From: Escherichia coli | GTDB taxonomy: Bacteria > Pseudomonadota > Gammaproteobacteria > Enterobacterales > Enterobacteriaceae | Length of the DNA stretch: 64,000 nucleotides | Direction: 5' to 3' (one strand) | NCBI RefSeq assembly: GCF_029227855.1 | Contig: NZ_CP074356.1 | Shown: piece after piece, positions 59,077-61,025 of the stretch | How the letters are laid out: each line of letters begins with the position of its first letter | Position numbering within the stretch: the stretch's first letter is position 1 | Program-made: the position numbers and the translations under genes | Notes under the pieces: model-generated | The model's input: the letters and a program-made list of their open reading frames with translations, nothing else | Database searches by the model: none | What the model was told of the DNA's origin: nothing

Positions 59077-59080
<4 letters not shown>
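58430..59080 (+). CDS. casE: Cas6e (CasE) pre-crRNA endoribonuclease, 216 aa
   Basis: ORF track 262 aa trimmed to MYLSRITLHTGQLSPAQL (ATG 58430, GGAGG RBS); 19-nt overlap with cas5; C-terminal G-rich motif GYGKSRAFGCGLMLI. Confidence 0.86.
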
Positions 59081-60290
<1,210 letters not shown>

Positions 60291-60386
60291 GTTATCTGTT
60301 CTTTAAAAATAAGGAAATGTTTTAATTTAGTTGGTAGATTGTTGATGCGGAATAAATTTGTTTAAAAACAGTTATGTATGCTTAGT
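60291..60386 (+). promoter_or_regulatory. AT-rich CRISPR leader between cas2 and first repeat; contains GTTGGTAGATTGT at 60330-60342
   Basis: AT-rich 96 bp; motif shared with the queE-proximal array leader at the same spacing. Confidence 0.7.
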
Positions 60387-61025
60387 GTGTTCCCCGCGCC
60401 AGCGGGGATAAATCGAGATCACCGTGTTAAATAACCGATTGAACGCCGTGTTCCCCGCGCCAGCGGGGATAAATCGGCCAGGCCAATACAGTTGGCGAAG
60501 AAGCGAAGGTGTTCCCCGCGCCAGCGGGGATAAATCGACACCGGGCTGGATAAAAAAACTATCGGGAAAGTGTTCCCCGCGCCAGCGGGGATAAATCGCC
60601 GTTTGATAGCTGTTCACGCTGGCTGATGCCGTGTTCCCCGCGCCAGCGGGGATAAACCGCGCAGTTCGCTACCGAGCGTGGTTTGCTGGTCGTGTTCCCC
60701 GCGCCAGCGGGGATAAACCGGCGCACAGCGACGCGAAATCAACGAAAATTTAGTGTTCCCCGCGCCAGCGGGGATAAACCGATTGCCAGATACTGTGTAT
60801 ATCCACCGACTAAGTGTTCCCCGCGCCAGCGGGGATAAACCGCAGGGAAACCGTTCGTACTTATCGACCTCAACGTGTTCCCCGCGCCAGCGGGGATAAA
60901 CCGAAGGGGACGGCTACGGGACGCCGCCTATTGATGTGTTCCCCGCGTCAGCGGGGATAAACCGGACGCACTGGATGCGATGATGGACATCACTTGGAGT
61001 TCCCCGCCCCTGCGGTAGAACTCCC
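60387..61025 (+). CRISPR. CRISPR array (K-12 CRISPR I / 2.1 equivalent): 11 x 29-bp repeats GTGTTCCCCGCGCCAGCGGGGATAAA(T/C)CG, 10 x 32-bp spacers, period 61; terminal repeat degenerate (GAGTTCCCCGCCCCTGCGGTAGAACTCCC)
   Basis: Repeats start at 60387, 60448, 60509, 60570, 60631, 60692, 60753, 60814, 60875, 60936, 60997; counted directly. Confidence 0.96.

Follow-up and report, generated by a model that had tools for sequence, protein, structure and literature searches.

The 13-mer shared by both CRISPR leaders of an Escherichia coli chromosome most probably corresponds to the known upstream Cas1-Cas2 recognition element of type I-E leaders

The 13-mer GTTGGTAGATTGT was found to be present in both CRISPR leaders of the window, the 64-kb stretch of DNA analysed here, and it is most probably (probability of about 0.9) the known upstream Cas1-Cas2 recognition element of the type I-E leader, variously named the integrase anchoring site (IAS), CBS2 or the upstream recognition motif. 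The element is real and conserved, and its finding is the rediscovery of a characterised site, not of a new one. Exactly two copies were found in the window, at 60330-60342 (+ strand) in the cas2-side (CRISPR 2.1) leader and at 34052-34064 (+ strand) in the queE-side leader. The two next-best matches were located elsewhere and contained 2 mismatches, and the expected number of second exact copies in 2 x 64 kb was calculated as about 0.002. Both copies occupied positions -57 to -45 relative to the leader-repeat junction, followed by a gap of 44 nt up to the repeat. The 13-mer was parsed as G-TTGGT-AGATTGT, and the cas2-side copy, which stands at the CBS2/IAS position of PMC5224486, was found to contain the TTGGT of the integrase anchoring site at -56 to -52 and a GTAG core at -53 to -50. 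A search of the literature for the literal 13-mer string returned unrelated papers only.

The window was found to be chromosomal E. coli DNA, and RefSeq complete genomes with cas2e and CRISPR annotation matched it at 100%. The cas1e gene (59077-60000, + strand) matched NCBIfam Cas1e at 2.8e-114 and the cas2e gene (59997-60290, + strand, with the stop codon ending at 60290) matched Cas2e at 1.9e-37; the Cas1e-Cas2e encoded at 59077-60290 would be the integrase that reads the motif. The Cas1 of the window matched the K-12 Cas1 chain of PDB 5WFE and related entries with E = 7e-176. The iap aminopeptidase was identified by NCBIfam downstream of the cas2-side array, and QueE was matched at 1.8e-110 beside the other one. 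The initial annotation had already used the labels cas2-adjacent and queE-adjacent, which these protein matches bear out, and had described the 13-mer as common to both leaders at an equal distance from repeat 1, in agreement with the exact copies at -57 to -45 in each; its cas2-side coordinates were right, and its queE-side coordinates (34053-34065) were one base off.

The cas2-side leader (60291-60386, + strand) comprised the 96 nt from the cas2 stop codon to repeat 1, which is exactly the span that had been marked initially. It was followed by the cas2-side type I-E array (60387-60964, + strand) with 10 repeats and 9 spacers, whose repeat 1 (60387-60415), the integration target, starts with GTGTTCCCC. 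The intergenic region between queE and its array (33771-34108, + strand) was found to contain, in its last ~200 nt, a colinear paralogue of the cas2 3′ end and leader. The queE-side type I-E array downstream of queE (34109-34686, + strand) contained 10 repeats, the last one degenerate, and its repeat 1 starts at 34109 with GAGTTCCCC. The repeats were of the I-E type (GWGTTCCCCGCGCCAGCGGGGATAAACCG), and the leaders belong to I-E arrays served by Cas1e-Cas2e. From 5′ to 3′, each of the two leaders was found to contain a distal module, the 13-mer, about 9 unconserved bases, the proximal IHF region and a TTAGT sequence, followed by repeat 1. The junction-proximal TTAGT was located at -5 to -1, at 60382-60386 (+ strand) in the cas2-side leader and at 34104-34108 (+ strand) in the queE-side leader, and forms the conserved leader end beside the integration site.

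The identification follows from published work on the K-12 CRISPR 2.1 leader. The region -44 to -59 was found to be conserved in 17 I-E leaders, and the leader was scrambled in 12-bp blocks (Yoganand 2017, NAR, PMC5224486). Mutation of CBS2 (-46 to -57) abolished array expansion in vivo, and in vitro it led to the loss of the super-shifted complex of IHF with Cas1-2 and of the integration product, with IHF binding and bending unaffected (PMC5224486). Within CBS2, only the central 4 bp were essential (-50 to -53, GTGG), which were named the integrase anchoring site, and the 4-bp blocks at -54 to -57 and -46 to -49 were dispensable; the IHF site was placed at -9 to -35, where mutation abolished IHF binding and bending (PMC5224486). 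In a 2023 review of the structural work (PMC10011333), positions -50 to -55 are described as contacting the junction-bound Cas1-Cas2 after the leader is bent by IHF through about 180 degrees, and 10.1101/2023.05.26.542337 describes a motif about 50 bp upstream that is recruited by one IHF. The sequence TTGGT was named as the IAS by Kieper et al. (PMC6607411). Both window copies were found to coincide with these published positions (CBS2 at -46 to -57, IAS at -50 to -53 and the contact at -50 to -55).

The same position was found to be conserved across species in a sample of leaders that was gathered through the Cas2 protein and not through the motif. An alignment of 8 Cas2e sequences was used for the scan, with one genome per species, and it gave 80 loci, of which 74 contained an array directly downstream of cas2; the 73 distinct leaders among them were anchored at the repeat start. 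The sample covered Escherichia, Salmonella, Klebsiella, Citrobacter, Pectobacterium, Dickeya, Brenneria, Serratia, Pantoea, Gilliamella, Zobellella, Oceanimonas, Marinomonas, Marinobacterium and several Desulfobacterales MAGs. The motif was found in the same register in 70 of the 73 leaders and one base closer to the repeat in the other 3, so that its distance is conserved as well. The consensus of these cas2-adjacent I-E leaders at -56 to -45 was TTGGTRGAtTTT, with T-56 in 82%, T-55 in 79%, G-54 in 96%, G-53 in 100%, T-52 in 96%, G-50 in 84%, A-49 in 78%, T-47 in 85%, T-46 in 74% and T-45 in 81% of the leaders; position -51 was occupied by A in 34, G in 35 and T in 4 of them. The core TTGGT followed by R-G was thus found as TTGGTAG in the window, as TTGGTGG in K-12 CRISPR 2.1 and as TTGGTRG in the consensus.

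Further conserved islands were found as an A-tract at -34 to -31, AAA(A/T)CA(A/G) at -22 to -16, T-10 and A-9, and TTAG(A/T) at -5 to -1, the last containing A-3 in 97% and G-2 in 99% of the leaders. An A-rich run at -61 to -58 followed by T-56 was also conserved across species. The positions -43 to -36 contained essentially no sequence information in the 73 leaders, yet their length was fixed; the corresponding stretches of the window between the motif and the IHF A-tract (60343-60351 and 34065-34073) behave as pure spacer. Within E. coli, the 13-mer was invariant in 6 cas2-side leaders of the window type and 5 queE-side leaders, 11 leaders drawn from the most divergent ones, and the flanks were found to vary. 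Conservation in orthologous I-E leaders was the check that the initial annotation had proposed, and the motif passed it in the 73 leaders. Of the two roles suggested there, that of a leader-recognition site stands, the 13-mer coinciding with CBS2/IAS and being conserved in this sample, and that of an IHF-type site does not, the IHF site being the one at -35 to -9.

The motif was found to occur in two alleles in E. coli, GTTGGTGGGTTGT with the K-12-type operon and GTTGGTAGATTGT with the window-type operon and with all sampled queE-side leaders. The cas2-side leader of K-12 MG1655 contained GTTGGTGGGTTGT at -57 to -45 (L002, 3825-3837, - strand), and its GTGG at -53 to -50 is exactly the 4 bp mutated in PMC5224486. 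The queE-side leader of MG1655, which is the leader containing AAGTTGGTAGATTGTGACTGG, was found to contain GTTGGTAGATTGT at -57 to -45, identical to the window, and the queE-side 13-mer was present at the same position in O157:H7, K99B and EC20-72C-1. The queE (ygcF)-side leaders of K-12 and the window were 89% identical overall, with the differences located at -64 to -59, -38, -27 and -1 and none in the motif. The cas2-side leaders of the window and of K-12 are homologous, yet that of the window comes with the other E. coli I-E variant; the window-type cas/leader variant was found in 2692 of 5426 complete E. coli genomes and the K-12 type in 1222. In E. albertii the motif allele was GTTGGTTGATTGT.

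The K-12 allele is the one allele that has been tested experimentally, and the window allele differs from it by A for G at -51 and -49. The GTAG allele would be expected to work in the same way with the Cas1 variant of this strain, since position -51 is R across species, K-12 contains both alleles and the Cas1 is a close homologue. The A/G difference at -51 is probably tolerated, because A and G were found there at about equal frequency across species.

The positions G-54, T-55, T-56 and T-47 were found to be strongly conserved though they lie outside the essential -50 to -53, so that a part of the conservation is left unexplained by Cas1 anchoring as it was assayed. A second role of the flanks (T-56, T-55, G-54, A-49, T-47 and the A-run at -61 to -58) as the pre-crRNA start or core promoter of cas2-side leaders is conceivable but unlikely. 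If it were true, RNA polymerase and the IHF-folded integrase would compete or coordinate on the same ~15 bp, and array transcription would be coupled to spacer uptake.

That the block is conserved mainly as a pre-crRNA promoter or transcription start region, and not for integration, is very unlikely. The K-12 CRISPR-1 start is given as about 50 nt upstream of repeat 1, inside the motif (Pul 2010, as related in PMC10011333), TTGGTA resembles a -35 hexamer, arrangements of TTGGTA-16 nt-TAAATT and TTGGTA-16 nt-AAAAAT were recognised by eye, and the conserved A-rich run at -61 to -58 followed by T-56 could be a -10-like element; such a role would also suit conservation that extends past the 4 bp essential for integration. 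However, the CRISPR-2 (queE-side) start is given as about -95 in the same review, yet the motif was identical and equally placed there. When the two leaders were scanned for promoters and terminators, neither showed anything over the motif, a sigma-70-like consensus promoter included, and the sole nearby + strand promoter match starts downstream of it, at 34067. The in-vitro integration defect was seen with purified proteins and no transcription (PMC5224486), and a base-exact distance to the repeat is not needed by a promoter. A promoter is therefore very unlikely to be the main explanation, given the CRISPR-2 start, the negative scan and the defect seen in vitro in the absence of transcription. 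A paper on LrhA was also examined for a leader-binding role, and none was described in it.

Between the motif and the junction, an IHF-binding region was placed at -35 to -9 in both leaders, the position being taken from PMC5224486 and PMC10011333. The putative cas2-side region (60352-60378, + strand) contained an AATAAA A-rich tract followed by AAACAGTTATGTA at -21 to -9, and the putative queE-side region (34074-34100, + strand) contained AAAAAATCAATAATTAATAATAGGTTA. By manual count, the cas2-side core contained 3 mismatches to the IHF consensus WATCAANNNNTTR at -21 to -9, which is weak evidence on its own, and the validated K-12 IHF site contained 3 mismatches in the same register; a scan for WATCAANNNNTTR allowing up to 2 mismatches gave no match at -21 in the cas2-side leader of either the window or K-12. 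The queE-side leader contained WATCAANNNNTTR with 1 mismatch at -31 to -19 and with 2 mismatches at -21 to -9. The sequence TTTAAAAACA was conserved in the E. coli and E. albertii leaders of the cas2-side type of the window, and K-12 contained TTTAAGAACA. Across species, 47 of 74 leaders matched WATCAANNNNTTR with up to 2 mismatches at -21 to -9 of the + strand, where the matches formed a sharp peak. At the level of sequence, an IHF site was thus found between the motif and the junction (-9 to -35).

That the 13-mer itself binds IHF or another architectural protein is highly improbable. Reverse-strand matches to WATCAANNNNTTR with 2 mismatches were found over it in the cas2-side leader (TAGATTGTTGATG at -52 to -40 and TAGTTGGTAGATT at -59 to -47), but the queE-side leader did not contain them, and minus-strand matches at -52 were found in 6 of 74 leaders as against the 47 of 74 with the + strand site at -21. 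Moreover, CBS2 mutants bind IHF and bend normally, whereas mutants of -9 to -35 lose both (PMC5224486). As a conserved match to WATCAANNNNTTR, the 13-mer was rejected, the matches being 2-mismatch ones on the minus strand of one of the two leaders and unconserved.

The two leaders were found by MAFFT and blastn to be old, colinear paralogues, joined by a chain of small blocks that reaches into the cas2 3′ end. Their ungapped identity over -96 to -1, anchored at the junction, was 48/96. The longest identical run was the 14-mer AGTTGGTAGATTGT at -58 to -45, and the identity outside this block was 34/82 (41.5%), which is close to that of unrelated AT-rich sequences, estimated at about 29%. In simulation, a run of at least 14 was obtained with a probability of 0.0002 to 0.002, and at 41% flanking identity common descent therefore does not explain the 14-base run. 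While the intervening 44 nt diverged, neither the sequence nor its spacing from the repeat changed. It is hardly credible that the 13-mer identity is a relic of leader duplication or gene conversion kept without selection, as the colinearity of the leaders and the remnant of the cas2 3′ end kept by the queE-side one would allow, since the divergence outside the block and the improbability of the perfect run speak against it and the conservation of the same core, equally placed, in 73 leaders of distant orders refutes it.

The queE-side region 33909-34010 was found to be colinear with the cas2 3′ end at 60203-60294, through the blocks TGGAGTGAAAAT, GGTGGATTT and AATCAAT..TTA. The individual blocks of this cas2 remnant were weak (E = 0.016-0.66), and their order was preserved. 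The arrangement suggests that the queE-side array may have arisen by duplication of a unit comprising the cas2 end, the leader and the array. The GGTGGATTT at 33947-33955 in the queE-side region was considered as a second upstream copy resembling the IAS and was rejected; it aligns colinearly with the P-V-D-L codons of cas2 (CCGGTGGATTTG) and is more readily seen as a vestige of the 3′ end of cas2.

For the anchoring site, a mechanism can be proposed in which the prespacer-loaded Cas1-Cas2 would recognise the junction and the repeat weakly, and IHF would bind at -35 to -9, an A/T-rich site lying between motif and repeat, and fold the leader back. The folding would bring TTGGTRG, ~50-56 bp or five helical turns upstream, onto a second Cas1 surface, and the Cas1 lobe that meets it would belong to the prespacer-bearing Cas1-Cas2 complex docked at the leader-repeat junction. 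This two-point contact would exist at repeat 1 only, so that integration would be polar and efficient. A contact that spans a bend induced by a protein would also require a constant distance from motif to junction. As both arrays carry the element, the single Cas1-Cas2, which is encoded beside the cas2-side array, should be able to use either of them as a target. The present analysis contributes the identity and position of the motif, its conservation across species and independently of the paralogue, the fixed spacing and the IHF consensus in between; the requirement for acquisition and integration, the independence from IHF binding and the Cas1 contact come from the literature on the K-12 allele GTTGGTGGGTTGT and would apply to the window by analogy.

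The motif is a part of the machinery that makes CRISPR memory chronological, with new spacers at the leader end only, and its genetics, biochemistry and structure have already been worked out in E. coli. The IAS or upstream recognition motif of E. coli CRISPR 2.1 is reportedly treated by Wright et al. in 2017 (PDB 5WFE) and Nunez et al. in 2016. The points added here are that the non-K-12 cas variant, the commoner one in complete genomes, contains the GTAG allele in both leaders, that the spacing to the repeat is base-exact across paralogues otherwise diverged almost to saturation, and that hardly any of the 73 sampled leaders, some of them from outside Enterobacterales, departs from the core GGT. 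They are useful for the annotation of leaders and the orientation of arrays and are not a discovery.

The closest known counterpart is the IAS of K-12 / BL21 CRISPR 2.1, which shares with the window the type I-E, the species, the position -57 to -45, the TTGGT core, the intervening IHF site and the TTAG. In type I-F (P. aeruginosa Cas1-2/3), an IHF-folded leader likewise presents upstream motifs to the integrase with phase-dependent spacing, but the motifs and the spacing are other ones, Cas2/3 is a fusion, and two IHF sites with two IHF bends have been shown structurally, whereas one IHF is described as needed for E. coli I-E. The leader-anchoring sequence of type II-A and motif III of I-D are also short sequences in the leader by which Cas1-Cas2 is placed at repeat 1, and the I-D motif III (TTGGC) resembles TTGGT (PMC6607411). 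However, the II-A site lies directly against the repeat and does not require a bending factor, and the I-D host is without an E. coli-type IHF.

Upstream of the 13-mer, a distal module was found in both leaders. The cas2-side module (60282-60306, + strand) contained the IHF consensus AATCAATAAGTTA at 60282-60294 (-105 to -93) followed by TCTTTAA at 60300-60306, and the queE-side module (33993-34017, + strand) contained AATCAATGAATTA at 33993-34005 (-116 to -104) followed by TCTTTAA at 34011-34017. Both AATCAATAAGTTA and AATCAATGAATTA contained 0 mismatches to the IHF consensus, and TCTTTAA sits 17-18 nt downstream of it, at 18 nt in both leaders of the window. The cas2-side consensus overlaps the cas2 stop codon (AAT CAA TAA), and no cas2 gene was present at the queE-side module. 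The sequence AATCAATRRGTTA, with 0 or 1 mismatch, was found in both window leaders, in both K-12 leaders and in 56 of 74 other leaders, 53 of which also contained TCTTTAA. The consensus is present without a coding constraint in queE-side leaders, in the 171-nt leaders of Marinomonas (at -103) and in K-12 (after the stop codon). The distances of the distal site to the junction were -93, -105 and -116, in steps of 12 and 11 bp or about one helical turn, and in other leaders the site was located at -93, -105 or -103. According to 10.1101/2023.05.26.542337, which refers to Santiago-Frangos et al. 2021, multiple IHF sites are present in 'some I-E' leaders, and that 2021 paper may already describe the distal module.

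A degenerate remnant array was found ~500 bp downstream of the queE-side array, at 35159-35278, with repeats at 35189-35217 and 35250-35278 and a partial GGGATAAACCG at 35159-35169; upstream of it, neither the 13-mer nor a recognisable leader was found. In the cas2-side array, the four repeats at the leader end (60387-60598) end with ATAAATCG and the older repeats (60631-60964) with ATAAACCG. The C-to-T variant was common to the four leader-proximal repeats and absent from the older ones, which is the pattern expected when repeat 1 is copied repeatedly during leader-end integration, and it is consistent with a mutation of repeat 1 propagated by at least 3 later acquisitions at the leader end.
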